Below are positions 18,797-59,167 of a DNA stretch of 64,000 nucleotides, in pieces; the first letter of the stretch is position 1, and each line of letters starts with the position of its first letter. The position numbers and the translations under genes are program-made. Source of the stretch: Bdellovibrionota bacterium (GTDB lineage: Bacteria; Bdellovibrionota_C; UBA2361; JBGSMV01). The notes beneath the pieces are model-generated. The model searched no databases. It was not told where the DNA came from and saw nothing but the letters and a program-made list of their open reading frames with translations. The stretch spans positions 64,001 to 128,000 of the forward strand of contig JBGSMV010000031.1 in the NCBI GenBank assembly GCA_041739995.1, read 5' to 3'.

Positions 18797-19774
18797 CTAC
18801 TGAGACGGAGCATGGATATCTCTATGCTTCGCCCCGATGACGAACTGAGCCGAAGGCAGGCGCTCTGCAAGTTGCTTAGCCATCCATTCGCAGAGTGCTA
18901 CAGAGCGGTGTCTCCCCCCGGTGCAGCCTACGCCTATTGTTACGTACGACTTGCCACTCTCAACAAACTTTGGCAGCAGAAAACCGAGTAAGTCCATGTA
19001 ACGCCCAGCAAAATCAGTGGCAACACCAGACTCGAACACAAACTCAGCTACAGGAGTATCGAGCCCCGAAAAATCTCGAAGCAAATCAACAAAGTAGGGA
19101 TTAGGAAGAAAGCGCACATCAGCAAGCAGGTCACAATCGATAGGAACTCCATGCTTGAATCCGAAGCTCAGAAACGTGACCCGCATGGGCTTTGTCGGCC
19201 CCTCATGACAGGAAGCTGCGAAATCTCTCACCTCGGATCGGAGCTGATGCACATTGAGCTCGCTTGTATCGATGACCCGATCGGCTACCTCACGCAATGG
19301 AAAGAGCCGGTCTCGCTCTCTGCAAATTGTTTCCTCAATGGTCTTATCGCGATCGGGATCAAAGCCTGGATGAGGCCTGCGCGTCTGTCCGTAACGCCGA
19401 ATTATGGTTTCTACTTTCGCATCCAAGAATAGGACCGCCAAAGATAAACCTTCAAGTGCGCGCGCCTCTCCCCGCATGCTTACCAATAAAGAAAGCAGCT
19501 GCTCTTGCTTAAGCACCGTATCGAGATCCATTGATAGCGCTGCTTTCTGTACCGGCTTCGATGAACGAGTAAGAAACTCAAGAAAATTTTTAAAGAGGGG
19601 GACTGGTAGATGCTCGACGCTGACAAAGCCGAGGTCGGACAGGGTATCCATCGCCGCAGACTTGCCTGCCCCAGACAAGCCCACCACAAGTACTATCGAG
19701 CAAGGTCGCTCGACTGCCACACTGCCTGGGCCAGCTGTCTGTAGGGGCATTGGTGCCGATTTTTCTCCCACCAC
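18797..19774 (-). CDS. rapZ: RNase adapter RapZ
   Basis: GLSGAGKS, TRRPHP, SFGFKHG, DVRFLPNP, GCTGGRHRS. Confidence 0.95.
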   Translation of the reverse strand: MVGEKSAPMPLQTAGPGSVAVERPCSIVLVVGLSGAGKSAAMDTLSDLGFVSVEHLPVPLFKNFLEFLTRSSKPVQKAALSMDLDTVLKQEQLLSLLVSMRGEARALEGLSLAVLFLDAKVETIIRRYGQTRRPHPGFDPDRDKTIEETICRERDRLFPLREVADRVIDTSELNVHQLRSEVRDFAASCHEGPTKPMRVTFLSFGFKHGVPIDCDLLADVRFLPNPYFVDLLRDFSGLDTPVAEFVFESGVATDFAGRYMDLLGFLLPKFVESGKSYVTIGVGCTGGRHRSVALCEWMAKQLAERLPSAQFVIGAKHRDIHAPSQ

Positions 19775-19809: not shown

Positions 19810-20124
19810 TCAATGCTTAGAGGTAAGTTTTTCTTTGTGGCGCCTTAACTGATGAGACATGGTGTCAACAAGGGCATCAATGGCTGAATACAAATCTGCG
19901 CGCTCCTCCTTGCCATTGAACGTAACGCCGTCGGCATTAAAAGTAACCTCTGCAATCTGCCTGTTTTTTTCGACCAGCAGTACCACATGCGCTTCAATAT
20001 CTTGATGGACAAACTTCTGCACGCAATGAGAAACCTTTTCGGTCGCATAGGTCTTTAGCGCTTCTGTAGCCTCGGTATTACGAAAGGTTAGATTTACATG
20101 AACAATGCGATCAGTATTCGACAT
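19810..20124 (-). CDS. hpf: Ribosome hibernation factor HPF/RaiA (short form)
   Basis: TFRNTEATEALKTYA, DLYSAID..QLRRHKEKL; downstream of rpoN. Confidence 0.92.
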   Translation of the reverse strand: MSNTDRIVHVNLTFRNTEATEALKTYATEKVSHCVQKFVHQDIEAHVVLLVEKNRQIAEVTFNADGVTFNGKEERADLYSAIDALVDTMSHQLRRHKEKLTSKH

Positions 20125-20341: not shown

Positions 20342-20497
20342 TTAGGAGTCTGATACACAGCCCTGTTTATGAGGATCCGCCTTCGCTCACATGTGCCTGT
20401 GCTGCCATTTGGTTCGAGGAGGCTTCCCCCTTCGCTCAGGCTACGAAAGATAAGTCGGCGGGACGTCGTCGTCTGTGCCTGCGTCACAGACTCCTAG
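20342..20497. mobile_element. MITE-like repeat, family C copy 1
   Basis: Terminal inverted repeats TTAGGAGTCTGA.../...ACAGACTCCTAG; right CTAG contains the rpoN stop; its reverse complement matches 38113-38175. Confidence 0.75.
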
Positions 20498-21993
20498 AAT
20501 GGCCGTTTTCGCTGGGAGGAGGACTCAAGACCGAGGTTCTCGCGGTACTTGGCTACCGTACGTCTCGCAATGGTGATTTGCTCACTTCGTAGAATGTCCA
20601 CCAACTGTTGATCGCTCAGTGGACTGTCTATCGACTCCCCGGAGATAAGTTCCCGAATGCGCTCTTTGACGCTTGAGGAGGACACGTCGCCATCGGCGCC
20701 TTTAATCCCCGTAGTAAAGAAAAATTTGAGCTCGAAAACTCCTTGCGGAGTATGGATATACTTGTCGGTCGTCACACGACTCACTGTCGACTCGTGCATG
20801 CCAATATCGTCGGCAACATCCTTAAGCACGAGCGGCTTCAGCCGTGAGATACCAAACTCCAGAAACTCTTTCTGAAATTTCACGATGCTCTCGGCAACTC
20901 TATAAATTGTCTGCTGCCGCTGATGAATACTTCGAATGAGCCATGACGCCGCCTTCAATCTCTCATTTAAATAGGATTTGTTTGGAACATCCGCCGACTC
21001 TTCACTCTTGAGGAGCTTGAGATAATAGGGGCTGACCCGTAACTTTGGAAGTCCGTCATCATTGAGAGAAATTACGTATTCTCCACCAACTTTGTACACA
21101 TACACATCAGGTACGGCGTAGCGAGTAGAGTCATCTGCATAGGATCGACCAGGTCGAGGCTCAAGTGTGCGAATTACACTTACTGCTTGGGTTACCAGCT
21201 CCAAATCAACCGATTCAGCCTTCGCAATCAAGTCGTAGCGACGCTTCTCGAGCTTGTCGATGTGTACACCGATAATGCGTGCGGCAAGTCCGTCACCAAG
21301 TCCAATTTGCTCTAACTGAATATTTAGGCATTCTTTAAGGTCTCGAGCACCTACCCCTGGAGGATCGAGGGATTGTACAAACTCGAGAACCTCTTCGGCC
21401 TTAGCCATCGAGATCTCGCAAGTCTCGGCGATTCCTTCGAGCGGCTCCATTAAGTAACCACGCCGATCGAGGTTCCCTATGAGATGAAGCGCTATCTGCT
21501 CCTCTTCGGGGTTCAAGCCGGCCATTCGAAGTTGTCCTACCAGGTGCTCGGCGAGTGTTTCTGATTTGCTGACCGTAGCCTCAAGGCCAGGTCGCTCATC
21601 AAAATCGAATAGTCCCTTGGGCGTCGCCGCACCTCGGGAATCCGTAAATGAATCAAGGTAATTCTCCCAGTCTACTCCGGGTTCATCTCCTGTTACGACC
21701 GATGGCTCCCCACTGGGCCCTTCAGATACTTCCGCGCTTCCGTTGGCCGATGAATCTTGGGCGTGTGAGAATTCCTCTGAAGACGTGTGTTCTGCGCTCT
21801 CTCCGAGAGATCTCGCGGAAGCATCGCCCTCTTCTCGAACCTCCTCGAGCAATGGATTCTCGAGCAGCTCCTTCTCTATCGCCTCTAAATACTCCATGCG
21901 ACCAAGCTGCAAGAGCTTGATGGCCTGCTGCAACTGTGGAGTCATCAGCAGATTCTGACCGAGCTTTTGTAAGAGTTTCGCTTCGAGTGCCAT
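20494..21993 (-). CDS. rpoN: RNA polymerase sigma-54 factor
   Basis: MTPQLQQAIKLLQL, HESTVSR, RpoN box ARRTVAKYR. Confidence 0.98.
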   Translation of the reverse strand: MALEAKLLQKLGQNLLMTPQLQQAIKLLQLGRMEYLEAIEKELLENPLLEEVREEGDASARSLGESAEHTSSEEFSHAQDSSANGSAEVSEGPSGEPSVVTGDEPGVDWENYLDSFTDSRGAATPKGLFDFDERPGLEATVSKSETLAEHLVGQLRMAGLNPEEEQIALHLIGNLDRRGYLMEPLEGIAETCEISMAKAEEVLEFVQSLDPPGVGARDLKECLNIQLEQIGLGDGLAARIIGVHIDKLEKRRYDLIAKAESVDLELVTQAVSVIRTLEPRPGRSYADDSTRYAVPDVYVYKVGGEYVISLNDDGLPKLRVSPYYLKLLKSEESADVPNKSYLNERLKAASWLIRSIHQRQQTIYRVAESIVKFQKEFLEFGISRLKPLVLKDVADDIGMHESTVSRVTTDKYIHTPQGVFELKFFFTTGIKGADGDVSSSSVKERIRELISGESIDSPLSDQQLVDILRSEQITIARRTVAKYRENLGLESSSQRKRPF

Positions 21994-22351
21994 GTCCGCT
22001 GTTACCGCCTCTATGTTGCTTCGCAACCGTGTTTCGACTTCCGTGTTCGTTCCGTGCAATCCACTGCGCCCCATTTCCGTCGAGAACTCTCAAGCCTCTC
22101 ATCGGCAAGGTGTATGGATGCCCTAGAGGTTTGGACGTACTTTTAGGCCCTTCTGGTTGCAAAAATTGTGCGCAGCGCTGAACTACTAGTAATATCGGCT
22201 AGTTAGGCTCAAGGATGCCCACCTTGTTGCCCAACGGAGGAGGCCTCAAGGGTGACCTGCTGGGTAGGTCAGAGACGTAATGACGGGGGGAAGCTTTCCG
22301 CTGAAATCAGGCGAGGCTACTTGGCCAGCACCCCAAAGACGAGTGCTTCCA

Positions 22352-23077
22352 CTAAAGATTGAATGAATCACCGAGATAGTATCGGCGTGCCTTCTCGCTT
22401 GAAGCGATGACGTCAGGAGCTCCCTCCTCAAGTACTTTCCCATCGATCAGAATGTAGGCGCGGTCGCAGATCCCGAGAGTCTCTCGAACATTGTGATCGG
22501 TAATAAGCACACCAATACCTTTGTCCTTCAAACGCTCGATGATGTGTTGGATATCCTGGATCGCGAGGGGGTCAATCCCCGCGAAAGGCTCATCAAGCAG
22601 AATAAATTTCGGGGAACGAGCAAGTGCCCTGGTAATTTCAACACGTCGACGCTCACCGCCAGACAAGGCACTCGCCACGTTTTTACGCAAAGCTGAAAGG
22701 CCAAGCTCAGCGAGCAGACTCTCTAAACGCTCATTTCTAGTCTTCCGATCGAGTTCGGGAATAGTTTCTAAGATAGCCAACACGTTCTCTTCGACCGATA
22801 GCTTGCGAAAGACTGATGGCTCCTGCGGTAAGTACCCGATACCCATTCGAGCGCGCATGTACATTGGCTCTCGGGTGATCACCTGACCGTTTAACACCAC
22901 CGCACCAGTGTCAGCCCCGACCAACCCGACGCACATGTAGAATGTAGTGGTCTTCCCCGCACCATTCGGCCCAAGAAGACCGACCACTTCACCGGCATTC
23001 ACAGAAATAGACACATGGTCCACCACCAGCCTACCGCCGTAGGACTTCGTAACTTCTAACGTAGCAAGGGTATTCAT
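22352..23077 (-). CDS. lptB: LPS export ABC transporter ATP-binding protein
   Basis: [43 protein letters not shown]. Confidence 0.97.
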
Positions 23078-23183
23078 ATCAGGTGCGAAGAAAAAATTTT
23101 CGCGACACATCGGAAAAGATATGCCGCTAGCCGCTTATAAATGTAGCCAAGCCCCCTCCTAATGGGGAGCCCTCCGGTGCAGC

Positions 23184-24056
23184 CTAAGTTGGCATGTTTT
23201 GCCCGTCCCAGCGAGCCCCTCGAAGGATTGCCTCGATTGCCACTGCTACGCCGTCTTCTTCAACCGACGCGCAGACATGCCGCACACGCGACTTCACTGC
23301 TGCTGCAGCATTGTCCGGGGCTACTCCCCAACCAGCTCTTTCAAGGAACGGCAGGTCTGCCTCAGAGTCTCCAAAGGCAATAACCTCTTCTGGGCTGACC
23401 TTATAAAGGTCAAGAAAGTATTCAAAGACGTCTTCTCGGCGCGCTTTCACGCTAGTGATATTGACGAAGCGAATGCCCGGATGAGCGGCACCAGCTCCTA
23501 CTCCAACGTTTACCTCAGGAATTTTCCCAAGAAATTGCCTTGCACTGGACTCTTGCTCTTCATCCCTACAGACAATGACCATCTTCACGATGTCTGGCAG
23601 ATTTGCATTGACCACAAAGGGATTACACTGAGGCAAAATGCCTAAATATTCACTATGTATGGTCGAAAGGTCATTAAGCACTTCGCTATAGTAGGCGCCA
23701 GAAGAATACCACTCAAAGTACAACTTCTCGCTACGGCAAAACTCTGTAACTTGCTGTCCTATTGTCGAACTTAGGGACGAAGCCCGCAACGTTGTCCCAG
23801 ATGCGGGATCAACAACAACAGCACCTGAGCAAAACATCGAAGGTCTTTTCACTTCCAGAGCCGCGATAATTTCGCGCGCCCCAAACCAAGGACGGCCAGT
23901 GGCCAGCGCTATCGCTACTCCCTGCACTTCAAGCGCTTTGATTGATTTCCGAACGAGAGGGGAAACTTTTCCGCTCCGTCCAACGATGGTGCCATCAATA
24001 TCAAAGAAGGCCACTTTAGGACGTCTCATCTGCTGTTCATTTCCTTGCACGCTCAC
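23184..24056 (-). CDS. Cof-type HAD-IIB hydrolase
   Basis: FFDIDGT, ATGR, AFGDSEAD, EEDGVA. Confidence 0.9.
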   Translation of the reverse strand: MSVQGNEQQMRRPKVAFFDIDGTIVGRSGKVSPLVRKSIKALEVQGVAIALATGRPWFGAREIIAALEVKRPSMFCSGAVVVDPASGTTLRASSLSSTIGQQVTEFCRSEKLYFEWYSSGAYYSEVLNDLSTIHSEYLGILPQCNPFVVNANLPDIVKMVIVCRDEEQESSARQFLGKIPEVNVGVGAGAAHPGIRFVNITSVKARREDVFEYFLDLYKVSPEEVIAFGDSEADLPFLERAGWGVAPDNAAAAVKSRVRHVCASVEEDGVAVAIEAILRGARWDGQNMPT

Positions 24057-24274
24057 TCCTCAAGCGTTGACACTCTGAGAAATTATCGAAGCATACTCGT
24101 ATGAATTGCACTGAATGAAAAGTTTATGGTCTCAAGCCCCGAATCAGTTTGTATACCACGGGGGCGATGAGGTAACGCGCGGGAGGACCGATGCCAGAGC
24201 GAATGGGGTAAATACGTGCCGGTGACAGGTTAATGACGCAGTTACTGGGATTTCGGGGAAGTCAGACGAGACGC

Positions 24275-24313
24275 CCCGCGCTGGGTCAGCGAAATGCGCG
24301 GACCCAGCGCGGG
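24275..24313. terminator. GC-rich hairpin downstream of 24327..25199 (possible terminator)
   Basis: Perfect 13-bp stem CCCGCGCTGGGTC/GACCCAGCGCGGG; no clear U-tract on the minus strand. Confidence 0.5.
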
Positions 24314-24326
24314 AACTTTCAGGTGC

Positions 24327-25199
24327 TTAAGATCCAGACACCAAACAGAAAAGCCCTGTGCGACGCGCGTCCTTAAACGATGCGAGAGCTGCTAGTGCAT
24401 GTTGCTGAGACTTATAGACATTCTCTCCATCAACCCGCGCCTCTAGAGTATTCAAAAATATCGGGTCAATGACGGTCCTCAAAAAATGTCGAGTTCGCCG
24501 CGATACACGAGGAACAAAAGATTCCCCCAGTATCTCAACCTCCTCCCTCGTATACTCGAGCTCGAACTGTCGCACTGTTCGCTGAGTGACACCATAAACC
24601 CCAAATGCAGAGTCTCTCGCAATGTCAGCCAAGGCTCGAATCTTAGCCACCGCGCGTAACATGTGCACCAAGACCGTGACCCTATCACGTCGGTCATATC
24701 CTCCTGCGCAGTCTCCGCCGTTTGGTTCGCCCACAATCTCCAGACGATCCCAAGATCCAGCCAAACACACAGAGAGTTGACTCAAGGCGATATTCACCGC
24801 ATCAAGCGCCTCTCTCGAGAGCCGCTGAGACTCTTCAATGGTGGAGCCAAGAATAGTAGCTGACGCTAGACCCAAAAAGTCGGCGTCGACCACGTCGTCG
24901 AGAAAATCCCGAGTGCGAGATGTCGCATGCAAACGCGGCTCGGCACCAAACCGGTCCATTTCGGACTTCCAAGCGTGGAACTCGTTATTCAAAGCCATCC
25001 GCTGGGTCTGGCTGTACACACCAGAAGCTGAAAGCGTAGCGAGCTCACTCATCCGTGTGAGAATTTGATTGGCATACGATTGCTGTTCGAGCACGAGCGG
25101 GCGCTGACTTCGAGTGTGCCCCACTGAGCACACTTGAGCGTTGCCGCTAGACACAAGGCCAAGAACCGCCATGATTCCAAGTACTATCCACGTCTTCAT
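24327..25199 (-). CDS. Secreted protein with two tandem flagellin D1-like repeats
   Basis: Sec signal MKTWIVLGIMAVLGLVSSGNA; ILTRMSELATLSASGVYSQTQRMALNNEF resembles the flagellin N-terminal D1 helix; internal duplication; GGAGAAGG RBS. Confidence 0.7.
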   Translation of the reverse strand: MKTWIVLGIMAVLGLVSSGNAQVCSVGHTRSQRPLVLEQQSYANQILTRMSELATLSASGVYSQTQRMALNNEFHAWKSEMDRFGAEPRLHATSRTRDFLDDVVDADFLGLASATILGSTIEESQRLSREALDAVNIALSQLSVCLAGSWDRLEIVGEPNGGDCAGGYDRRDRVTVLVHMLRAVAKIRALADIARDSAFGVYGVTQRTVRQFELEYTREEVEILGESFVPRVSRRTRHFLRTVIDPIFLNTLEARVDGENVYKSQQHALAALASFKDARRTGLFCLVSGS

Positions 25200-25627
25200 T
25201 GTTCCTTCTCCTAGTTTGCAGACACTTCCTTTCGCGCTTTGACATCCCTATGGACGAGCGAGAATGACCAAGCCAGAGGCATCCATGTGCCTTTAGCCCG
25301 CTATCTTCGCTCGCGAATTGTCGAGATGAGTACCTCGACCGATTTGGACCCATCGTTTTCGGAGGAAGAGTGAATTTCCAGAGAACTCGCAGAAACAACG
25401 TCTCGGGGTAAAGATGAAGCGAGCTTTAGCGCATAACCGTGGAGCCAAGAGCGATCTTGAGGGGCCGATTTCAAGAGCATGCACGGGATTCGAGGTTTGA
25501 AGACATCATTCCGAAGTGATAGAGGCCACAGAAGAATTGAATCGCTTCTCGAACACACGCCGAGACCGACCCGCAGGATCCACAATAATGGTTCCATCAA
25601 TGCAGACAGGTCAGCTGCAGCCTTCGA

Positions 25628-28411
25628 CTAATGCGCCTGCTTTTCACTCGCTGAGCTAAGACGAATGCGCGTAGGCGGCGTAGTCATCACTTCGCGAGGA
25701 GTTCCTGAAAGCGCCTCAGCGATCAGCGCAGAAAGGCGAGTTAACTGGAACGGTTTTGACACAAATCCTACTACGCCGTCTGTCTCAAGTAGCTGACTCA
25801 GCGTAGCACTAGAAACATATCCGGTAGATATAATTACGCGAACTGCGTTGTTCAATTTGCGCAGTTCTGCGAGACACTCTGAAGCCCCCATGCGAGGCAT
25901 AACCACATCAAGCAGTACCAGATCGATTTTCGAAACATGCTCAGTAAAAACTTCGATTGCTTCCACACCGTCTGAGGCGGTGAACACCACGTATCCCAAA
26001 GATTGCAGCATCTCTGAGGTGGCACTTCGTACCACATCGTGATCATCAACCACCAGAATAGTCCCTTTCCCCCGTGCGGGGAGCTGAATACTTGCCTCCA
26101 CCCTTTGCCCCAGCGACACCGTGGTGATCGGAAGTAGGATTACAAATGAGGCTCCCTGTCCTTCACTACTCTGGAGAAAAATTGAGCCACCATGGTTGCA
26201 CACAATTCCATACACCATCGCGAGGCCGAGACCAGAGCCTTGGCTCTCGTCCTTAGTACTAAAAAATGGTTCAAAAATTCGCTCTCGAATACTGTCGGGG
26301 ACCCCGCAACCAGTGTCAGTCACCTCAAGCTTAAAAAACATACGAGCGTCTCCATTAACCTCCGACGCCTCTATATTGCTCGTTCGAATGGATAGCTTTC
26401 CTCCCTCCGTTCCACCTGAAATAGGACTCATCGCATCTCGCGCATTTATCGCAAGATTAAGAATGATTTGCTGTAGCTGAACAGGATCGCCAAGCACATG
26501 GCACTCGGTTGCGCCGAAATCTGTTTCCAACGCAATGGAAGGCGCAATCGTTCGCCGGATAATTGAGAGTGTTTCGTCAATCGAATGGTGGATATTCACC
26601 GGCGCATTCTGGTGCTTTCCTTTCCGCGCAAAACCTAAGAGCTTCTGGGTGAGCTCCGCCGCGCGCGTTGCCGCCTGTTCGATCACTTCTGCGCTTCGAT
26701 AGACTTCGGGGCGGTCACTCGAATCAAGTTTTATCAAAGTCGTATAGCCCAGAACTCCCGTCATGAGGTTATTAAAATCGTGGGCGATGCCGCCCGCGAG
26801 TTGCCCCAAGGCCTCCATCTTCTGGGCCTGAACAAGCTGGTCATGCAGCATGCGCTGCTGCGTAATGTCGGTTGCCACTCCGAGAACGTGGACACCATTT
26901 TTCCCCGGAATCTCTAGCGGGAGTTTCACGGTGTGAAGAATCCGCTCTCGGCCTGATTTATCAGTAACTACCTCCTCTTGAATCGTGATTTTTCTTCCTG
27001 AGTCGATCACTGCCAGGTCATCCCGTCGGTACCCTTCGACCTGGGCAGGATCGGAATTAAAATCCGAGTCTTTCTTCCCAATTAGATCCTCTACAGTCGT
27101 GCCATATACGTCCGCCACTGCCTGGTTCACTAAAGCAAAATGGCCTTCCGAGTCTTTGACGAAAATAAGGTTTGGATCTGTGTCGATCACCTTGCGTAAA
27201 AACTTTCTGCTGCCCACCAGCTGTCGCTCGGCTTCCTTTCGCTGTGTGATGTCGCGCACAATACATACCAAACTGCCATCACCAAGTGCGGTAAGCGACA
27301 GCTCCTGAGAAAACATTGAGCGATCCTGTCTGAGCCCAAGCGCCTCACACTGCAGGTTTCCCTCTCGCAAAAAGCTTACTCGCACATGACGTTCGAGGTT
27401 TCGAAGCTCTTGGCTAGAATACAACACCCGCCAGTTCTGTCCGATTAATTCCTCGGGCCTTGCATAACCGAACAATCGAGCAAGCGCTGGATTTACAAAA
27501 CTAAAGGTCTCATCTCGCTCAATGATGGCAATTCCCTCAAGTGAAGCGTCGATAGCTTGGGATTTGCGGCGCAGCTCGTTCTCTATTTTTCTACGTTCAT
27601 TTACTTCGCAGGCCATGGCGACCATGTCGGCAACTGAACATGCAAAGTTCTGCTCATCGAGAGTCCAGCGACGCCGTGGGCCTACATGTTCGTGGCACAC
27701 GATTCCAAACAGTGCCCCATTCACGTAAATGGGTGCGTCCAGCATCGAGGTCACCCCGGCCTCTTGCAGATACTTAAAGTCACTGGTGTATGGGTTGCGT
27801 GACACATCATCGGCCACCAAAATTCGGCTATGCCTAATCGCCTCGAAGTAGGTGGGAAACTCTGCGCGCACAATCGTCTGCCCAGAGGAAAAGTGGCAGG
27901 TCGATTTTTCAAACTCACACTGACACTCGATTACAGAGCCGTCAGCATGCAGTTGCCACACGCTCACGCGCTCTACTCCGAGGGTCATTGCGGCGATTTC
28001 GGTGAGTTCTCGAAGCGCGCCCTGCAAATCCTTTCCGAACATGCTGCTGCTGTTCGCGATACGAAGAATTGCTGCACGCTGACGTTCGAGTCGATAATTA
28101 TCTGCTCGAATCCCGCGTGTACGATCATCGAGAAGTCGCCTCAGATGTGTTCGGATAAACAGTGGAATGAATGCGGCGAAGAGGACTGCGAGAACAAATG
28201 TTCCGATCATCCAGGGGTCGGAAAGGGATCCGAGATCGTTGGTCACCGCGGTGCAAAAGAGGCTTCCAAAAGCGAGAAGAGTAACCACTCCCACCAAAAT
28301 GGGGAGAAAGTCCTCTCGTCGCATTCGCAGAAACCGCATTCGCGTGCTCCTCGACTTCACGTTGATTGGCCCTGCACTCTCAGATGCCTCAAAAATTCTC
28401 GAAAGAACCAA
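25628..28411 (-). CDS. Hybrid sensor histidine kinase (TM-GAF-PAS-PAS-HisKA-HATPase-REC)
   Basis: GIAHDFNNL H-box, NLAINARDAM, GSGLGL, REC LLDVVMP; GAF VCHEHVGPRRRW. Confidence 0.92.
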   Translation of the reverse strand: MVLSRIFEASESAGPINVKSRSTRMRFLRMRREDFLPILVGVVTLLAFGSLFCTAVTNDLGSLSDPWMIGTFVLAVLFAAFIPLFIRTHLRRLLDDRTRGIRADNYRLERQRAAILRIANSSSMFGKDLQGALRELTEIAAMTLGVERVSVWQLHADGSVIECQCEFEKSTCHFSSGQTIVRAEFPTYFEAIRHSRILVADDVSRNPYTSDFKYLQEAGVTSMLDAPIYVNGALFGIVCHEHVGPRRRWTLDEQNFACSVADMVAMACEVNERRKIENELRRKSQAIDASLEGIAIIERDETFSFVNPALARLFGYARPEELIGQNWRVLYSSQELRNLERHVRVSFLREGNLQCEALGLRQDRSMFSQELSLTALGDGSLVCIVRDITQRKEAERQLVGSRKFLRKVIDTDPNLIFVKDSEGHFALVNQAVADVYGTTVEDLIGKKDSDFNSDPAQVEGYRRDDLAVIDSGRKITIQEEVVTDKSGRERILHTVKLPLEIPGKNGVHVLGVATDITQQRMLHDQLVQAQKMEALGQLAGGIAHDFNNLMTGVLGYTTLIKLDSSDRPEVYRSAEVIEQAATRAAELTQKLLGFARKGKHQNAPVNIHHSIDETLSIIRRTIAPSIALETDFGATECHVLGDPVQLQQIILNLAINARDAMSPISGGTEGGKLSIRTSNIEASEVNGDARMFFKLEVTDTGCGVPDSIRERIFEPFFSTKDESQGSGLGLAMVYGIVCNHGGSIFLQSSEGQGASFVILLPITTVSLGQRVEASIQLPARGKGTILVVDDHDVVRSATSEMLQSLGYVVFTASDGVEAIEVFTEHVSKIDLVLLDVVMPRMGASECLAELRKLNNAVRVIISTGYVSSATLSQLLETDGVVGFVSKPFQLTRLSALIAEALSGTPREVMTTPPTRIRLSSASEKQAH

Positions 28412-28709
28412 GGCAACCGATCGACATTTCTACTCTGATGCTGACCTATTCGAGTAAGCAAACAGAGCAAGTGCTCCGCTACTGTATCATCCATGCGGTT
28501 CTTAAGTGACGAATCTCTGGAAAATTGGCCTTTAGTGATGGGAAAAATCTGGATAAGATCAGATAGTTATCATGGGGCCTTATGACAGCCTTCGAATAGA
28601 GCGTACTCTGAATGATAAATTTGATTAGCTTTCCAACCTTCTTTATAAACGTGGACCGGTTTCTTGGTGCCGTTCCCCGTAATTCTATTGCCGGAAGTTC
28701 CCTATAATA

Positions 28710-28736
28710 ATATCGGTGGTTAGTTATTTGAGTTGA
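28710..28736 (-). promoter_or_regulatory. Sigma28 (FliA)-like promoter facing the 25628..28411 kinase
   Basis: Minus strand TCAA-N15-ACCGATAT. Confidence 0.45.
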
Positions 28737-28763
28737 GCGACTTTCGCCCAAGTACAGCTTTCT

Positions 28764-29156
28764 ATGAAAACTGCGATTCATTCTTCAACATCCGGCTCCA
28801 CTGAACTCTCTGCCACTCCCGAGATGCGACTCGCTGGGCTTGCGCGACTTCTTATGGAAGCGAAAGATCAGGCAGATGGTCGCGATGCTCTCCAGTTCAG
28901 CATTAGCGCAGACAAGCTTTGCGTTGTCTTGGATACCAGACCGCTTGATCATCCCCTCGCTATGCATGGCGTCACGCAGCTTAAGCAGGCTCTGGAAAGT
29001 CCTGCGATGGCGAGAATCGACTCAGATATTACGAAGACTCTAGGCGGTATCGTCGATGCTATTGGTGAAGCTCTTACGAAGTTCCCCGGTGCATCTCCTC
29101 AACCTGAACTGGCTGCACTACAATCTCCAGCGATCGAACGCCGCACGAGCATTTAG
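28764..29156 (+). CDS. Hypothetical protein
   Basis: 130-aa ORF with helical composition after an AT-rich intergenic region. Confidence 0.6.
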   Translation: MKTAIHSSTSGSTELSATPEMRLAGLARLLMEAKDQADGRDALQFSISADKLCVVLDTRPLDHPLAMHGVTQLKQALESPAMARIDSDITKTLGGIVDAIGEALTKFPGASPQPELAALQSPAIERRTSI

Positions 29157-29189
29157 TTTCGAACATTGTTGCGTATCTCTAGATTTCGG

Positions 29190-30638
29190 TTAATCCCGTC
29201 GCAGAAACTGATTCGTGTACTTGAAGATCGGTGAACTTGGCGTTTGCCCCGCCATAGAACTGTATCGTACCACCTGCGGACGAGTCAGCTTCTCCACTGC
29301 ATCAGCCACATACGCCGCCACCTCAGCGGGGCGTGTACTGTGGGTCCCTTCGCAAATCACCACCAAGAGCTCTCGTCCATGCGCCTGAGCAAGATACATT
29401 TGGTCAGAGAGTTGGGAGGCTTCGTGGGGTCCAGATTTACCCTTGAAAAACGCATCTTCCGAGTTCTTCACTTCGACGAAGAAACGCTTACCGCCCTTCG
29501 AAGCCACAATGTCGATCTCTGGCCTACTAATGGGGAAGTTAAGATCGCGAGTAACCTTTCCAGCGGGTTTAGCGGCCGCGGGATCACTCACGTGGGCAGA
29601 TAGTTCTTCAATGGTATAGCCGTCTTGTTGCAACGCCATTGCGGTGCTCACTTCTCTGAAGTGCCCCATCAAAGCTCCAGACTCTCGATGCTTACCGGAA
29701 CCAAGTGCTTCACGAGCCGTGCGAAGAGCAGCGCCGAACGTGGAAACACAGCCCTTGCATCCCGAGTGGTGTAAGGCATCAAGCCCGGCCAAATAGTTGA
29801 TGCTTCGGGTATCGCTTTTGAGAAATGTAATCAGGTCATTATTGGAGAATTTTGCGCGGAACGATGGATCACCAAGCAATGAAAGCAACGCCTTTACGCC
29901 TCGATTCCGCGTACTCGTCTCAGCGATTGAAGTGCTTTCATGTTCGGCCGCGGTTCTCACCGCATCGATGAGGTCTTGATCAAGGAGTCTTGTTTTTGGA
30001 GGAGTGTGAGGCGCATTCGTCGCGCTCCCCGCCATCCGCTTTTCTACCGGAACTTTGGCGCTGTTTATTCTATCAATACCATTCTTAAGGCCAAGACCAT
30101 CCTCAGAGAAGACTTCCCCGGCCTGCTCCCGCACCGCTATGGACCCAAGATTCATCAGTTCCGCGAGATTCTTTTGCGGCGCCTGCAGGCAATACTGCAT
30201 AGCCTTCTCTGGACTCAAACCACTGTCGCTAAGCGCCAGCAGGGTTACTATTAGCTCTCCGTGGTAGGTCTCATTCGTTAGTTTCTTAACGACGTTGGTT
30301 GCACCTGCATTCTCTAGTTGTCTGCTCAGATTGTCGATCAAAGTCCCCAGGCGCTGCAGAGACTGCTCAGCCTTTCGAATCCCATTTTCATCAACATCTG
30401 AGATAAATCCTGCTTCTCGCGCCTCAGTTATACTTGGATGACCGCAAAGGATGGCGTTCTGTAGTAGTGTTCGCTTGGAGGGGTCGATATTGAGAAGGTC
30501 CAGTATTCCGTCTTTACCTCCCGCAGCCCGAAGCACATCAAGGGAAACCCCTTCTGGCTGACGAACCGAAAGTTCAGCAGACGGAGGAACTCCAATATCC
30601 TTGGCCGACCGAAGATCGACTACAGCGGTATTCGCCAT
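29190..30638 (-). CDS. Protein with C-terminal PD-(D/E)XK nuclease-like domain
   Basis: GHFREVSTAMALQQDGY...EIDIVASKGGKRFFVEVK (E..D..ExK, YraN/Mrr-like); N-terminal about 320 aa unrecognised. Confidence 0.65.
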   Translation of the reverse strand: MANTAVVDLRSAKDIGVPPSAELSVRQPEGVSLDVLRAAGGKDGILDLLNIDPSKRTLLQNAILCGHPSITEAREAGFISDVDENGIRKAEQSLQRLGTLIDNLSRQLENAGATNVVKKLTNETYHGELIVTLLALSDSGLSPEKAMQYCLQAPQKNLAELMNLGSIAVREQAGEVFSEDGLGLKNGIDRINSAKVPVEKRMAGSATNAPHTPPKTRLLDQDLIDAVRTAAEHESTSIAETSTRNRGVKALLSLLGDPSFRAKFSNNDLITFLKSDTRSINYLAGLDALHHSGCKGCVSTFGAALRTAREALGSGKHRESGALMGHFREVSTAMALQQDGYTIEELSAHVSDPAAAKPAGKVTRDLNFPISRPEIDIVASKGGKRFFVEVKNSEDAFFKGKSGPHEASQLSDQMYLAQAHGRELLVVICEGTHSTRPAEVAAYVADAVEKLTRPQVVRYSSMAGQTPSSPIFKYTNQFLRRD

Positions 30639-31202
30639 ACAACCTACCCAGTTTGTCACCACCAACTGCGAGCACGCTTTCGACGCAACCACGTCTTTAC
30701 TGCGTTCTCACCACCGACAAGACGCTCGTTTTAAAGCGAAGCTCCGCGAATCGTCGAACTACTGACTAAAGTTATGGGTAAACGATTCGCGTGAGGGGCT
30801 CTACTCGGCTGAAGGGGAGGCGCCTCATCGACGCGCTGCTCTGGCGAGTGAGCGATGAAACGGTGCCGTCTCAATAGGTTATCTAGGAGAATTCACGGAT
30901 GGGGGGGGATGCGAACGTCCGAATGGGTCTTCGGAATTGGGCTGAGCGGTCCGACTTCAGTCCCCCATTACTCTTGGTTGAGCGGAAATCGATCGGGAAG
31001 GCAATCACACTGAAGCCACACACAGACTCACAAGATCGTGCAAGGACGGGCGGTGTCCTCCGGCTAAATTGTCAACGAGTATCCGTGATCCGGTGTAGGC
31101 GGTTGAATTTATGAATACCAGGGTCGCGCCCGCTCTTAGATACTCGGGCAAGAAGAATAGTAGCGGCGCTGAAGAGGCTGCTTTTTTTGAAAGGGAGGTC
31201 TC

Positions 31203-31531
31203 GTGTCGGTAATTACTCAGACTATTCTGCTGCTCGTGTGTTCAAACGTATTCATGACTTTTGCGTGGTATGCACACCTAAAGAATTTATCCACCGCGCC
31301 GTAGCTTCTTGCCGTCTTCATAAGCTGGGGTATTGCACTATTTGAATACCTATTTTCGAAGTGCCAGCCAATAGAATTGGGTACACCCAATTAAACCTCG
31401 CACAACTCAAAGTCATGCAAGAAGTAATTTGACTCGCCGTGTTTGTGCCCTTCTCTATGTTCTATATGCGAGAGGCGCCCAAGCTCGATTACCTTTGGGC
31501 AGCAATGTGTTTAGTTGGCGCAGTTTATTTA
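31203..31531 (+). pseudogene. DMT-family small membrane protein (DUF486-like) pseudogene
   Basis: SNVFMTFAWYAHLK..SWGIALFEY..VPANRIG..QLKVMQEVI..DYLWA; TAG at 31302, frameshift near 31355, TGA at 31430; GGAGG RBS. Confidence 0.85.
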
Positions 31532-31557
31532 AGGCCTTTCCTTATACTCATTCGCGC

Positions 31558-31757
31558 ACTACCACAGCATGCGGCGGCAATTCGCGACGGAATTTTTAAC
31601 ACAGAGGTCACGGTAGACACCGAGAAGGAATCTATCTCCATTCTTCTCCGCGCCCTCTGCGTCCCCCGCGTTATTAAATCATCAGCAGCGAAGACCCAGA
31701 ACTGCCCACAATTTACATCCAATCGGGGGTGCCGGTGCCACGCATGGTTTCGGTAGT
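31558..31757. repeat. Imperfect foldback element
   Basis: Outer inverted repeat ACTACCACAGCATGCGGCGGCA / TGCCACGCATGGTTTCGGTAGT; inner inverted repeat AACACAGAGGTCACGG..GAGAAG / CTTCTCCGCGCCCTCTGCG..GCGTT. Confidence 0.5.
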
Positions 31758-31813
31758 AATTTGTGTCAGAGCAATAACGCGGAGAGCTCGGCGCACCCAG
31801 GGCCGAAAGGATC

Positions 31814-32494
31814 CTATCGTAGCAACGGCGCCAAAGAGGCAGTCCCTGCACCTTTACCTGCGCCAGTTTCAGGTGCGGGGTCAGACTTAACCAATTTCAC
31901 ACGTACGTTTCCTTCAGCGGCACTACGGTTCTCAGCCAGAAAAACTTTGATGACATCTGCAGTAAGAACACTGCCATCTTGCTGCAGTTCTGGATTCTCA
32001 GTCAGGGTGACGATCTGAGCTTCGTTGTCGAAAATGGCGCGCTCCCCTGATGCTCGAATCCCTTCACCCTTAATAATAACGACATTTTCTTTGGCCGTCA
32101 GATTTTTGATTCTGTTATTTTCATCGTAGCTTCCCTCAACCTCCGCGGCCGTCAGGATCATGTCCCCTTGTTGCACCTCAACATTTCCCTGGTAGGCAAA
32201 GACCCTTTCGGTGCCCTTTAACGTGAGGGTGTCAGATTTAACAAAAGTGGGCAGCTTCCCAAATTCCTTATCTCCCATAAGGCCACCGCCCAGTGAAGCT
32301 TTCTCCTTCCCTCCAATGCTTGAAGCAGGCGGGGAGGTTTGAGCGCTCTTAGGAGAACTCTTCTTTGCGCCCTGACCCGCGCGCAGGGTATCGGCGTGTG
32401 CCACTCCAACTAAGAGCAAGGTACTGCACAAAACCACTAGGACTTGCGGCAGACCTCTTATTCTCGTCGCTTTCATACGCATTTCTCTTTCCAT
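31814..32494 (-). CDS. lptA: LPS export periplasmic protein LptA
   Basis: Signal peptide, YQGNVEVQQGD, LTENPELQQ OstA domain; follows lptC. Confidence 0.88.
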   Translation of the reverse strand: MEREMRMKATRIRGLPQVLVVLCSTLLLVGVAHADTLRAGQGAKKSSPKSAQTSPPASSIGGKEKASLGGGLMGDKEFGKLPTFVKSDTLTLKGTERVFAYQGNVEVQQGDMILTAAEVEGSYDENNRIKNLTAKENVVIIKGEGIRASGERAIFDNEAQIVTLTENPELQQDGSVLTADVIKVFLAENRSAAEGNVRVKLVKSDPAPETGAGKGAGTASLAPLLR

Positions 32495-32597
32495 CTATCT
32501 TAAATGTCTTCCCGCGCTGCGAATCCTGCGGTGGGGTTTCGACAATAGACCCCTCAGTCACAAGATATCCTAAGAAATGACCTAAGTACGTTAAGCC

Positions 32598-33344
32598 TTA
32601 TTCCTGAGCCTTATGTCGCTGCGCTCGCCCCTTTCGCGGTTGTTTTCCCGCATCTGCAACTGCTGCGGTTACGGCTTCTCTCGGCTTAACCATGCTCTCG
32701 ACCGAAGCAAGCAACTTCACAATCTGAGACTCAATCTCAACTTCGGCCCCAACTCCTGACACATCAAATGAGGGGCTCGAAAGCTTCACAAATCCTGCCG
32801 CATGCACGCGCCCCGCCACCTTGTCGTATTCCGCACGCTCGGTCTCAATGGTCAGTTCATCATTGCGTATCACACGCACATCACCTTCCAACACGGCGCT
32901 CACCAGACCAGTGCCTGCAAGAAATAACTTCGCCCGTTTCGCAAGCACTCGAACCTCGGCGCCATCCTCCGTAAATACAAAAAGTTCTGGGGCTTCTACT
33001 TCAGCTTCGTTCTTCTCAGGAAAATACCTTCCCTCAGCTGCAACGATTTCCCATACCTTTTTTCCATCACGCACCTCACTGCGCCTAAAGGTCTTAAGAG
33101 TAAACGGAGACTGATTATCAGGTTCCCCCACCGAGGCTGATGACGGCGACGACTCGCCAAGGCCCTCTGGCAATTCCGTGTCTCCAATACTCGCAATGCT
33201 TCTCTCCTCTTGAGTCAAAGCAATCGGCGCTGATTGACGCTCTTGTACGCGCAAAATCCCAAAACCAAAAAAGGTCGCCAGCGCCAAAACTGCCGCCAGG
33301 ATGCTCTGCTTACGAGAGAGTTGAAAAATACGGGCGAAACTCAA
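32598..33344 (-). CDS. lptC: LPS export protein LptC
   Basis: N-terminal TM, GKKVWEIVAAEG beta-jellyroll; between kdsA and lptA. Confidence 0.85.
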   Translation of the reverse strand: MSFARIFQLSRKQSILAAVLALATFFGFGILRVQERQSAPIALTQEERSIASIGDTELPEGLGESSPSSASVGEPDNQSPFTLKTFRRSEVRDGKKVWEIVAAEGRYFPEKNEAEVEAPELFVFTEDGAEVRVLAKRAKLFLAGTGLVSAVLEGDVRVIRNDELTIETERAEYDKVAGRVHAAGFVKLSSPSFDVSGVGAEVEIESQIVKLLASVESMVKPREAVTAAVADAGKQPRKGRAQRHKAQE

Positions 33345-33440
33345 GTTGGTAGAACTCCTGAACCCAAAATCCCACGAGAATGACGCTGCATCATTGATCT
33401 ATTGAAGGTAAGAACGCCACCTCGCTACTGCAGAGCCCTG

Positions 33441-34289
33441 TTAGCCCTGCGAAGAAAGGAAAAATGCCTCTCTTATCGCACACACGCTGCGAATGACCGA
33501 ACTCACTTCTGAAAGCCGCAACATGCTGGCACCATCAGAAGGTGCCGTATCAGGGTTCTCGTGGCACTCGAGGAAAAGGCCATCCACCCCAAGCGCCGCG
33601 CCAACGCGCGCTAGAGGTGCAACAAATTCTCTCTGCCCCCCGGAAGCGCCACCAGCCTGAGCTCCTCCCATGGATTGTACGGCGTGGGTTGCATCAAGCA
33701 CCACAGGATATCCAATTTTTTGGAGAAGCAAAATGCTGCGCGGATCGACCAGAAGATCGCGGTAACCAAAGCAGGTTCCACGCTCGCATAGCAGAATCCG
33801 TTCATTGCCGGTTGCCGCAACCTTTTCTGCAGCAAACCGCATATCGTCAGGATGTAAGAACTGACCCTTTTTTATGTTCACTACTTTGCCCGTTTTCCCG
33901 ACCGCAGATAGGAAATCGGTCTGTCGACACAGAAAAGCCGGGGTCTGCAGTACATCGACCACTTCCGCGGCCGCGCGTGCCTGCTCCTCGGTGTGTACGT
34001 CAGTAAGAACCGGTATGCCCGTACGACGACGCACCTCTTGAAGCACCATCAATCCCGACTCAAGACCAGGACCACGCTGCGAAGCTACACTGGTTCTATT
34101 GGCTTTATCGAACGAAGCCTTAAATACAAGATTAACTGGCAGGTCCTGCAACCGCTCCCGCAAGGTGCAAGCAATCATGAGACTGTGTTCAAGAGATTCG
34201 ATTTGGCATGGCCCAGCGATAACGAGCAGCTTATTTTGACGCCCGCCAACGCTAATGGCGTCAGTGATTTTAACTTCCTTCATAGTCAT
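33441..34289 (-). CDS. kdsA: KDO 8-phosphate synthase
   Basis: IAGPCQIES, KASFDKANRTS, PAFLCRQTD, KKGQF, DATHAVQ. Confidence 0.97.
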   Translation of the reverse strand: MTMKEVKITDAISVGGRQNKLLVIAGPCQIESLEHSLMIACTLRERLQDLPVNLVFKASFDKANRTSVASQRGPGLESGLMVLQEVRRRTGIPVLTDVHTEEQARAAAEVVDVLQTPAFLCRQTDFLSAVGKTGKVVNIKKGQFLHPDDMRFAAEKVAATGNERILLCERGTCFGYRDLLVDPRSILLLQKIGYPVVLDATHAVQSMGGAQAGGASGGQREFVAPLARVGAALGVDGLFLECHENPDTAPSDGASMLRLSEVSSVIRSVCAIREAFFLSSQG

Positions 34290-38462: not shown

Positions 38463-39182
38463 TCACGGCACGATCGGCTCCAATAGCAGTTCGACTCGCC
38501 GATTGGCCGCCCTCCCCTCGTCGCTACCATTCGAGGCAACCGGTCGAGTATCAGCGTACCCAACTGCGGAGAAGCGGCTTCCCTGCACTCCGTTCTGAAT
38601 CAGCACTTGAACTACCTCAATCGCCCGTCCCGCCGACAGCTCCCAGTTAGACGGGAACTCGCTTGTCGCGATCGGTGTACTATCGGTATGTCCTTCCACC
38701 TTAATGCTTGCTTGCTGAGAGGCCAACATGGGAGCAAGAACTTGTAGGAGCTCACTAGTATTCCCAGACAACTCTCGCTTTCCAGGAAGAAAACCTCCGC
38801 CGCCAAGCGAAATTCCTACTCCTTCGTCCAGAATCTTCAGCTGAATTTCTTCAGGAAACTCCAGTATGGGATCATTGGCATGTCGTACCATGGGCTCGCC
38901 CAACTGTGTCGCAAGCACCTTCCTGGCTTCCTTCGCCAGTTGGACCGAGGCGCTCTGCACCTTGACTCGGCGCTCAAGGGAGAGTCCAAGCCCGCTCGCA
39001 AGACTTTCATTATCAAGCGACGCCATGGAAAGTTGCATGACAAAGCCCGTCAGTAACAGCAAAAGCAAATCCGAAAAGGTGAGAAGCCAGGGAGTTCCTA
39101 AATTCTCTGGATCCCTACCCCTCAGGAGCGAGAGTCCTCGACGGTAGCTCCCACGCACATATTGTCCGGATTCGCCCCTCAT
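38463..39182 (-). CDS. motB: Flagellar stator MotB/PomB family protein (conserved Asp present)
   Basis: PWLLTFSDLLLLLL TM; OmpA-like EGHTD..SNWELSAGRA..NRRVE. Confidence 0.88.
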   Translation of the reverse strand: MRGESGQYVRGSYRRGLSLLRGRDPENLGTPWLLTFSDLLLLLLTGFVMQLSMASLDNESLASGLGLSLERRVKVQSASVQLAKEARKVLATQLGEPMVRHANDPILEFPEEIQLKILDEGVGISLGGGGFLPGKRELSGNTSELLQVLAPMLASQQASIKVEGHTDSTPIATSEFPSNWELSAGRAIEVVQVLIQNGVQGSRFSAVGYADTRPVASNGSDEGRAANRRVELLLEPIVP

Positions 39183-39820
39183 TCGGCGCCCTCAACCACA
39201 ATGGTGACCCTACGATTCTGGGCTCTGCCATACTCCGAGTCGTTTGAGGTCACGGGAACAAACTCGCCTCGACCAGCTGCAGATACTCGCTTGGTCGAAA
39301 CTCCAGCCTGGGTAAAAATCCGCAGCACCGAGACCGCTCGCGCGGCTGAGAGCTCCCAGTTGCTGCGGAATCTGCCACCCATCATGGCCTGGTCATCAGT
39401 GTGCCCCTCAATTCTCGCCACAAGATTTAGTTCGGCAACGATGCGGGCAATGCGCCGGATAATCGGCACATACTCGGGTTGAATCCGGTCATCACCACTT
39501 CCAAAAAGCTCACCACCTGGAAGTGTTAACGTGTAGCGTCCATCCTTCTCAAGCACCCCGAAGTTCGCGCGCGTTGCGATTTGCTTTATCTGAGAAGTGG
39601 TTACTCTTTCGGATCGAAGCTTCTTAAGCCCTGACCTACCACCATAGTGGCTGCGAATCGCCTCTAATACATTAGACTCTTTGATTGAATCTGGAGTCGA
39701 TCGAGAAACTAAATAGACGAAAAGACATAGGAGAATAAGAATCAAGCTCGTGAAGGAGACACCGAACGTTGAGCTTCGTTCTTGCTCGCTCTCTTCTAGT
39801 CTCGCACCCGACCTTCTCAC
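39179..39820 (-). CDS. MotB-like protein lacking the TM Asp
   Basis: FGVSFTSLILILLCLFV TM; EGHTDD..SNWELSAARA..NRRV. Confidence 0.82.
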   Translation of the reverse strand: MRRSGARLEESEQERSSTFGVSFTSLILILLCLFVYLVSRSTPDSIKESNVLEAIRSHYGGRSGLKKLRSERVTTSQIKQIATRANFGVLEKDGRYTLTLPGGELFGSGDDRIQPEYVPIIRRIARIVAELNLVARIEGHTDDQAMMGGRFRSNWELSAARAVSVLRIFTQAGVSTKRVSAAGRGEFVPVTSNDSEYGRAQNRRVTIVVEGAE

Positions 39821-39905
39821 TGTGCTTTTTCCTTACGTTCTCTCTGTGCTCGCAACGTCATTCGGAGACCTTGAGAACTACCCTTCGCTGTCTTTGGGTA
39901 GCGTT

Positions 39906-40694
39906 CTACTTGTACTCAGAAACACGCTTATCAGTAGGGAGGAACCCAAGAAGCCTGCGCTCGATAGTGCGTGGATTCAAGCGTTGCGCAAGACAGACCA
40001 CTCCTTCCACTGTGAGCTCTTTGACGAGGAATTCTTCCTCACTACGATTTCTGAGCTTTCCCGCAAACGGTAAGCAAATCACATTGGCAAATAGCGCTCC
40101 GTAGAAGGTAGTGAGCAGAGCTACCGACATCGCAGGTCCGATCTTACTCGGTGTGTCCAAGCTCTGCAGCATTTGCACCAGCCCAATCAGTGTTCCCACC
40201 AGCCCCATCGCCGGAGCAATCGCGCCCATCGTTGAAAAAAGCCGGGCCCCACTGCGATGTCGATCTTCAAGGAACGAAAGCTCAATCGACATCACCCGTC
40301 GAATCTCTCGTTCTTCCACGCCTTCAAGCAGGAGCTCCAGGCACGCCCCAAAGAAAGAATCCTGTTCCTCATCAAACTCACTGCGCAATGAAGCGATATC
40401 TTCAGAGCGAAGTCGGCGAGAGAAATGTAAAATGCGCGCGATGCGCTCGCGCAGTGCGGAACGCTCCGGAAAGAAAGCGGTCTTTACCAACCCAAACGTA
40501 CGCCCCACCTCGGCCAGCGGATGATTGATCATGGTCGCGCCAAGCGTACCCCCAAGGACGATCAACATTGAGGGCACATCCCAAAAGACACGCATGTCTC
40601 CGCCAAGGCGTATGGCGTAGAAGACAAGTCCGAATGCGGCGATAATTCCAAGAATGGTAGCGAAGTCTATTTGCTTGTGTGAGAAAAATAGCAT
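39906..40694 (-). CDS. motA: MotA/PomA family stator subunit
   Basis: DFATILG, PSMLIVLGGTLG, APAMGLVGTLIGLVQML, ALLTTFYG; ORF open to 40745. Confidence 0.9.
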   Translation of the reverse strand: MLFFSHKQIDFATILGIIAAFGLVFYAIRLGGDMRVFWDVPSMLIVLGGTLGATMINHPLAEVGRTFGLVKTAFFPERSALRERIARILHFSRRLRSEDIASLRSEFDEEQDSFFGACLELLLEGVEEREIRRVMSIELSFLEDRHRSGARLFSTMGAIAPAMGLVGTLIGLVQMLQSLDTPSKIGPAMSVALLTTFYGALFANVICLPFAGKLRNRSEEEFLVKELTVEGVVCLAQRLNPRTIERRLLGFLPTDKRVSEYK

Positions 40695-40748
40695 GTGTGC
40701 GCTGCTCGTGTTGATGGTTCTCTTCTGGGGAGCGACCTGCTCCAATTG

Positions 40749-57264: not shown

Positions 57265-57392
57265 CGTCGCGTCTTCCTTAGCCTCCCCAAAGGCCCTCTA
57301 GTTACAACCAAACCAGACTCTCCTTCTTGAGCCTTCTCCCTCTGAGGCTACGAGTATCCGATCTCCTCCATATAGGCTGGTATCCGCGACAC

Positions 57393-59154: not shown

Positions 59155-59167
59155 TTGATTGACATCT

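Follow-up and report, generated by a model that had tools for sequence, protein, structure and literature searches.

A tandem flagellin D1-like protein with a signal-like N-terminus and paired cysteines in Bdellovibrionota

Within the 64,000-nt stretch of Bdellovibrionota DNA analysed here (the window), an intact open reading frame on the minus strand (24327..25199; 290 codons and a stop) encodes a 290-aa protein, P0001. The family to which it belongs is related to flagellins by homology, not by chance, and it is a new architectural form within the flagellin superfamily. We consider it probable, with considerable room for doubt, that P0001 is a Sec-exported, disulfide-closed and non-polymerising tandem mini-flagellin of an undescribed family, derived from flagellin. 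That it binds the cell's own flagellin or filament is a less certain proposal, which we hold only tentatively.

Gene layout, repeats and homology to flagellin

The initial annotation of the window had described a single gene at 24327..25199 whose product carries an N-terminal signal peptide, two repeats, and four cysteines in all, one at the start and one at the end of each repeat. Each of these points was borne out, with the addition that the gene lies on the minus strand, as do all features of P0001 given below; the opposite plus strand is full of stops in the same frame. A Shine-Dalgarno sequence (AGGAG, 25208..25212) was read from the sequence, with the ATG 8 nt downstream. The signal-peptide-like segment (residues 1–21; 25137..25199) was assigned by a hydropathy heuristic together with a sequence pattern shared across the family: it contains a single Lys, a 10-residue window with a mean Kyte-Doolittle value of 2.79, and a terminal G-N-A that is followed by Q-V-C. 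Signal peptidase I would be expected to cut after G-N-A, leaving Q-V-C at the mature N-terminus. Repeat 1 with the inter-repeat linker occupies residues 22–160 (24720..25136) and repeat 2 residues 161–290 (24330..24719), each repeat being ~125 aa long. Cys24 (C1; codon 25128..25130) and Cys145 (C2; 24765..24767) bracket repeat 1, and Cys164 (C3; 24708..24710) and Cys285 (C4; 24345..24347) bracket repeat 2.

The question of two repeats was settled by profile matches to each half. A profile of 147 positions, built from 18 single-repeat relatives, none of them from the genome of P0001, matched both halves separately over nearly its whole length (E = 2.3e-39 for repeat 1 and 1.7e-19 for repeat 2). 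An AF2 model of P0001 (mean pLDDT 85.9, pTM 0.80; alignment of 6 sequences) places helices at residues 30–58, 64–86, 94–103 and 121–148 in repeat 1, and the same four-helix pattern returns in repeat 2 (170–199, 204–226, 234–243 and 261–288). The single-repeat relative P0027 was modelled with a pLDDT of 92.5.

The Pfam profile Flagellin_N matched P0001 over residues 43–83 (profile positions 81–121 of 139; E = 0.003, 18.1 bits). This segment (24951..25073) also has direct similarity, in NCBIfam and hhalign, to the conserved flagellin ND1 motif, which comprises the end of ND1a, the turn and ND1b. The initial annotation had looked to Flagellin_N for a check of its flagellin reading, and the outcome was divided: the match is present, but its score falls below the gathering score of 26.6 bits. 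Eleven NCBIfam models of flagellin or FlgL likewise matched P0001 weakly (best E = 4.5e-5). When P0001 was compared by phmmer with 1.84 billion representatives, 51 proteins matched, two of which are genuine flagellins; a 267-aa minimal flagellin aligned through its residues 84–186 with residues 42–144 of P0001 (E = 9.9e-5), a span of 103 residues that includes the linker and the head of CD1.

The claim of flagellin D1-like sequence was upheld by profile comparisons. Searched against all PDB sequences, the single-repeat profile returned flagellin or FlgL in each of its first 44 rows (best E = 2.7e-6). Searched against the genome of P0001, it returned the two repeats of P0001 itself and then 14 of the genome's own flagellins (E = 6.9e-10 to 7e-3), and an hhalign comparison of the family with an alignment of five flagellins gave a probability of 97.5% (E = 4.9e-12; 50 columns). 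Taken individually, 6 of the 18 single-repeat members reached Flagellin_N at E ≤ 1. The ESM Atlas, used for leads only, gave a best score of 0.84, to a small cluster with Flagellin_N in 12% of its members, and a score of 0.79 to a cluster of the FliS co-chaperone. The conserved ND1 signature is thus detectable by profile methods, which places the family in the flagellin superfamily.

A D1-like core without D0

Flagellin ranks with the most intensively studied proteins of bacteria, and we know of no flagellin that leaves the cell by a route other than the flagellar type III system or that lacks D0. D0 holds the signal for type III export together with the contacts of the inner tube and is therefore needed for polymerisation. 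In the structural comparison by VIA-align, the best 12 of 48,161 representative PDB chains for the P0027 model (residues 31..148) were all flagellins (Z 14.9–10.7), which superposed with an rmsd of 1.6–2.1 Å over 106–110 of ~118 residues; in the best row, 108 residues aligned at 1.6 Å with a Z of 14.9. The first unrelated chain was a designed bundle (Z 10.4, rmsd 3.5 Å). For the P0001 model, the best 12 rows were again all flagellins, aligned to residues 29..154 of repeat 1 (Z 14.8–11.0; best row 2.5 Å, 116 residues aligned). This fold search covered repeat 1, repeat 2 having been tested by the sequence profile. Identity within the flagellin superpositions was 12–26%. Since helical bundles can reach a Z of up to ~13 from common arrangements alone, a value exceeded only by the top four rows, the fold match counts jointly with the sequence evidence and not by itself. 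Foldseek against the PDB gave no match at E ≤ 0.001 for the two-repeat or the single-repeat model (all E > 0.01); for the single-repeat model its best eight rows were flagellins (probability 0.99–1.00, E = 0.05–0.18).

These results also bear on the possibility that the family is a novel four-helix bundle, similar to flagellin through convergence or through an artefact of composition in its amphipathic helices. The sub-threshold Pfam match of the single sequence, the Foldseek E-values and the Z of 10.4 attained by a designed bundle would all suit such an origin. Against it stand independent profile evidence (the PDB search, the own-genome search and hhalign), a phmmer alignment to a true flagellin that runs on through the linker into the CD1 head, and the ranking of 12 flagellins above every unrelated chain at low rmsd and over nearly the whole domain. 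We regard this explanation as largely refuted and give it next to no credence.

Within Caulobacter FljK (PDB 6xky, 271 aa in the chain), the matched part runs from about residue 72 to 201/214 and consists of the ND1a tail, ND1b and the CD1 head. Such a minimal flagellin has in addition ND0 and the beginning of ND1a on its N-terminal side, and the end of CD1 with CD0 on its C-terminal side, all of which are absent here, and Flagellin_C gave no match to P0001 in Pfam at E values up to 10. The models therefore support a repeat that corresponds to the three-helix D1 core of flagellin without D0, as the initial annotation had proposed from the letters alone, and also without the lower part of D1: Flagellin_C is missing, Flagellin_N is met only at positions 81–121, and the models superpose on D1. 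The proposed D1 bundles appear in the AF2 model as a four-helix pattern found twice, with repeat 1 superposing on flagellin D1, and a bundle of the ND1a-ND1b-linker-CD1 type was found in the models of both P0027 and P0001 repeat 1. As for the C-terminal D1-like helix, its support comes from the fold and not from a profile.

P0001 nevertheless lacks what defines a flagellin: its match to Flagellin_N is partial and below threshold, Flagellin_C is absent, and the N-terminus is, by the heuristic, of Sec type. We therefore treat the proteins as a homologous domain family and not as flagellins. Compared with bacterial flagellins (FliC/FljK type, PF00669 and PF00700, including minimal D0-D1 forms such as Caulobacter FljK), the D1 core is homologous in its ND1 signature, helix order and CD1 head. 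In contrast to them, P0001 is without ND0, CD0 and lower D1, has a Sec-type signal in place of the type III export N-terminus, carries a terminal Cys pair in a tandem duplication, and has the hairpin and outer-domain insert cut to a short helix and loop. FlgL, the hook-filament junction protein, has the same D1-type bundle (Z 9.2–9.6; profile E = 6.7e-4), but it is exported by the type III system as an axial protein and has D0 helices, and its likeness to P0001 is weaker than that of the flagellins. The family profile also finds cell-surface flagellin homologs of Sphingomonas sp. A1 (PDB 2zbi, 3k8v and 3k8w), with E-values from 8e-5 to 1.7e-4. They reportedly have a role outside motility, are near full-length flagellins and are not known to have a Sec signal or a Cys staple.

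Under the derivation that we propose, an ancestral flagellin would have lost D0 and the lower half of D1, together with the signal for type III export and the helices that polymerise in the inner tube, and would have kept the ND1a tail, ND1b and the CD1 head, with a short linker replacing the β-hairpin and the outer domains. FliS binds the C-terminal helices of flagellin, and its site also lies in the part that is missing here. Without D0, P0001 could be neither a filament subunit nor a type III substrate, and it would be expected to be a soluble, Sec-exported module.

Export signal, cysteine pairs and distribution of the family

The initial annotation had asked for a check of the signal and the cysteines in homologs, and both are largely conserved. 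By the hydropathy heuristic, 40 of 42 members have a signal-like N-terminus, namely 22 of the 24 two-repeat and all 18 single-repeat proteins; the two remaining two-repeat proteins begin right at the first Cys or a short way ahead of it and are apparently truncated gene calls. A small-x-small pattern followed by Q-x-C recurs throughout the family, which fits cleavage by signal peptidase I and would place the Cys at about the third residue of the mature protein. A bacterial lipoprotein was considered as well and rejected: directly ahead of the first Cys, P0001 has V, and the homologs have V, S, P, I, G, T, Q, R, D, H, E, N or A. This residue is thus often charged or bulky and not consistently small (G/A/S), which excludes a lipobox.

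In the single-repeat members, both cysteines are invariant (18/18), and the second is the penultimate residue in 16 of the 18. Among the 24 two-repeat members, C1 and C2 occur as a pair in 20 and are missing as a pair in four, with no protein having just one of them; C3 occurs in 23 and C4 in all 24. The proteins without C1 and C2 fall at two separate places of the tree, as a clade of three and as a single protein whose sister keeps both cysteines, which suggests two independent co-losses. In the fragmentary homolog P0029, C3 and C4 are missing together, and the two-repeat homolog P0002, which has lost C3 and kept C4, is a counter-example. That C1 and C2 are retained or lost together fits a staple within the domain.

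The models suggest where such a staple would sit. The order of the helices, taken with the superposition on flagellin, would bring the beginning of helix 1 and the tail of helix 4 together at one end of the bundle. In the P0001 model, residues 28 and 150 are the only two in a β-bridge and so must be partners. Both cysteines of a repeat would then be located at the end where flagellin continues into D0, so that a disulfide could close the cut end. The genome of P0001 contains genes of the DsbA family and a gene in which VKOR and a DsbA-like domain are joined in a single reading frame; a search of this genome (91% complete) found no DsbB. In the proposed derivation, the D1 core would thus have gained a Sec-type signal peptide and a Cys pair, one Cys just past the cleavage site and the other at the end of the last helix, and the module would have been duplicated in tandem through the conserved linker. 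The protein would be exported by Sec and oxidised by the DsbA/VKOR system of the genome, and it would end up in the periplasm as a soluble D1 module that does not polymerise, with release past the outer membrane as a further possibility.

The family comprises ~50 clusters, none with more than two sequences, and includes proteins with one repeat and proteins with two. The 51 phmmer matches divide into ~24 two-repeat proteins (269–308 aa), ~20 single-repeat proteins (140–173 aa), a few fragments and the two flagellins; homologs share 40–46% identity with P0001 over 87–98% of its length. A word-index search for homologs with the single-repeat profile returned four proteins. The sequences strongly support purifying conservation across the ~50 clusters, and the net charge of the mature domains shows no trend. 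Two conserved motifs are the family's own and do not occur in flagellins: the linker S-W-D-R, and G-Y-x-R-x-[DE]-R, which follows the first Cys.

In agreement with the statement in the initial annotation that no described family has this architecture, no Pfam or NCBIfam model covers the family, and members are called only "hypothetical protein" in their sources, twice with "Bdellovibrionales bacterium". A full-text search of the literature outside subscription journals returned no description of a Sec-exported or D0-less family derived from flagellin.

The family is found in 12 of the 124 species-representative genomes from the phylum of the window (8 of 73 good-quality genomes; 10 of 64 genera), and it appears to be confined to this one phylum. 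One holder from the same class is an uncultured Bdellovibrionales MAG record. Each carrier has one copy, in a single or double form that varies even inside one taxonomic family. No family protein was found in a taxonomic family of 36 genomes, the largest of the order, and the protein is thus not a general flagellar part.

In a tree of 66 domains, obtained by a quick search and midpoint-rooted for drawing only, three sets of domains, from repeat 1, from repeat 2 and from single-repeat proteins, are each set apart from the rest by a branch (SH-aLRT 81, 96 and 96, respectively). This arrangement points to one old duplication, with repeat 1 nearer to the single form. The single-repeat form, which makes up a separate clade, is an addition to the initial reading.

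Genomic context and possible roles

P0001 lies inside an interrupted lptC-lptA...lptB-rpoN block, between lptB and a HAD hydrolase on one side and a hybrid histidine kinase on the other. The neighbouring genes on the first side are rapZ (18797-19774), hpf (19810-20124), rpoN (20494-22074), lptB (22352-23110) and the HAD hydrolase gene (23184-24056). On the other side lie the GAF-PAS hybrid histidine kinase (25628-28411), two unknown ORFs (29190-30692, and 28764-29156 on the plus strand), lptA (31814-32494), lptC (32598-33344) and kdsA (33441-34289). With gaps of 428 nt upstream and 270 nt downstream, the P0001 gene looks monocistronic.

Flagellar neighbours were found neither at this locus nor at the loci of 11 relatives, and the latter share no conserved neighbourhood, Peripla_BP_6 adjoining the gene in 2 of the 11. 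Upstream of P0001, no sigma-70-type site scored above shuffles and no sigma-28 or sigma-54 consensus was recognised. The upstream regions of 12 family genes have no word in common and gave a single sigma-54-like match, and no 7-mer was common to at least 5 of 23 flagellin upstream regions.

This context fits a helical bundle exapted for a periplasmic role unrelated to flagella, such as binding of a ligand or an envelope component, a structural function or a chaperone-like one, with flagellin ancestry as nothing but history. The variable and non-flagellar surroundings at 12 of 12 loci, the lack of a recognisable flagellar-type promoter, the motifs not shared with flagellins and the patchy distribution (12/124 genomes) speak in its favour. 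However, the flagellin signature is still the most conserved stretch, the family profile finds flagellins at E = 1e-6 to 1e-10, and no ligand-binding or enzyme family was matched in Pfam or NCBIfam. We consider such a role possible without favouring it; it is about equally likely as binding to the cell's own flagellin.

Binding of P0001 to its own flagellin or filament, in the periplasm or the sheath space, is a tentative part of our proposal. We lean towards it as a function because the retained region is the part of D1 that forms D1-D1 contacts in filaments, because carriers have many flagellin-type matches, and because periplasmic proteins can meet flagellin. Flagellin_N matches number 7–25 per carrier genome, with 24 in the genome of P0001. 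The co-occurrence as such is uninformative, since flagellins are present not only in 12 of 12 carriers but in 113 of the 124 genomes of the phylum. A complex prediction of mature P0001 with a 286-aa flagellin of the same genome, run without controls, scored 0.22 and 0.25, against a mark of 0.32, and speaks neither for nor against binding.

With regard to an encounter in the periplasm, a preprint describes a periplasmic protease of the studied relative Bdellovibrio that degrades flagellins during flagellar resorption (bioRxiv 10.64898/2026.06.08.730854), and a second report describes a sheathed Vibrio flagellum as having a motor that forms no outer-membrane pore (PMC13521929). Together, the two indicate that periplasmic proteins can meet flagellin in such organisms. 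In this setting, P0001 might hold or escort unpolymerised or resorbed subunits, or it might decorate the filament inside a membrane sheath.

Spirochetes offer a parallel for such an encounter. The sheath proteins of their periplasmic flagella (FlaA, FcpA/FcpB) are exported by Sec and, in the periplasm, come into contact with a flagellin filament that the type III system exports, and they are the only established precedent that we know of for the mode proposed here. To our knowledge, these proteins are not derived from flagellin, and no sequence relationship between them and the P0001 family was detected in Pfam, NCBIfam and PDB searches. For P0001, association with a filament is a proposal.

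In a more specific and rather improbable version, the mini-flagellins would be Sec-delivered accessory subunits of a membrane-sheathed flagellum, D1 mimics that dock on the D1 of the filament or on resorbed subunits, and the tandem form would bridge two neighbouring subunits. If true, they would be the first flagellin-derived flagellar component that does not use the type III system, and a non-spirochete counterpart of the spirochete sheath proteins.

More generally, the proposed origin of P0001 would mean that the D1 core is able to fold on its own, as a unit that has been moved to Sec, closed by a disulfide and duplicated. Binding of P0001 to flagellin or filaments, if it occurs, would bring to light an additional level of flagellar biology in Bdellovibrio-like bacteria, either accessory proteins of the sheath space or the handling of resorbed flagellin. 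If there is no such binding, the family would be a natural example of a polymer subunit turned into a soluble module, and a minimal D1 scaffold for structural and binding studies.

A last explanation, which we consider very unlikely, is that P0001 is released as a decoy, its D1-like modules absorbing agents that recognise flagellin D1, such as the fibres of flagellotropic phages or a eukaryotic flagellin receptor. At P0001 and the loci of 11 relatives there are no linked secretion genes and no sign of passage across the outer membrane, and Pfam scans of the 11 relatives' loci gave no phage-defence neighbours. The sequencing runs listed with the stretch (four DNA runs from one study, with no RNA run) are labelled as hot-spring and biofilm metagenomes and give no hint of an animal host. 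A decoy would nonetheless be consistent with the retention of a conserved D1 surface region and with disulfide closure, which suits an extracellular protein. It would also be consistent with the flagellins of the carrier genomes, many of which are short (264–330 aa) and would probably expose D1 as their surface.

Insertion in the lpt-rpoN block

The mini-flagellin gene, which encodes P0001, lies within a kdsA-lptC-lptA-lptB-rpoN-hpf-rapZ block (window 22352-34289, minus strand) that retains the usual gene order and is split between lptA and lptB by an insert of ~8.7 kb. Besides this gene, the insert carries a GAF-PAS hybrid histidine kinase, a Cof-type HAD hydrolase and two ORFs without a Pfam match (29190-30692, minus strand; 28764-29156, plus strand). 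One family member (locus L038, 7572-8480, minus strand; contig G113:C58) gave only one match to the single-repeat profile despite its 303-aa ORF; its second half may have diverged, or its start may be over-long.

Disulfide-oxidation genes

In the window's own genome, G000, a single 439-aa open frame joins VKOR and a DsbA-like domain (C52:32874-34091; loci L043/L044), and its sequence predicts a fused disulfide-oxidation module. A search for DsbB in this 91% complete genome found none.

Flagellins and stator genes

The flagellin repertoire of G000 is unusually large, with 24 Flagellin_N matches, 23 of them above the cut-off (for example C81:34828-36219, C42:109041-110364 and C64:28099-28506); the maximum in relatives of the same phylum is 29. 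The matching ORFs span ~264 to ~645 aa, many being ~620-650 aa. The window's flagellin (55639-56433) has 264 aa. Immediately 3' of it, six plus-strand ORFs of 177-339 aa follow in a row (56461-61841); a Pfam scan of these gave no match at E ≤ 1e-5, and they may represent an uncharacterised gene set linked to flagellin.

Elsewhere in the window (38463-40745, minus strand), a pair of genes with OmpA domains comes after a motA-like gene. The MotB plug is present in one of the pair, and the region therefore comprises a stator set plus an extra OmpA-family partner.
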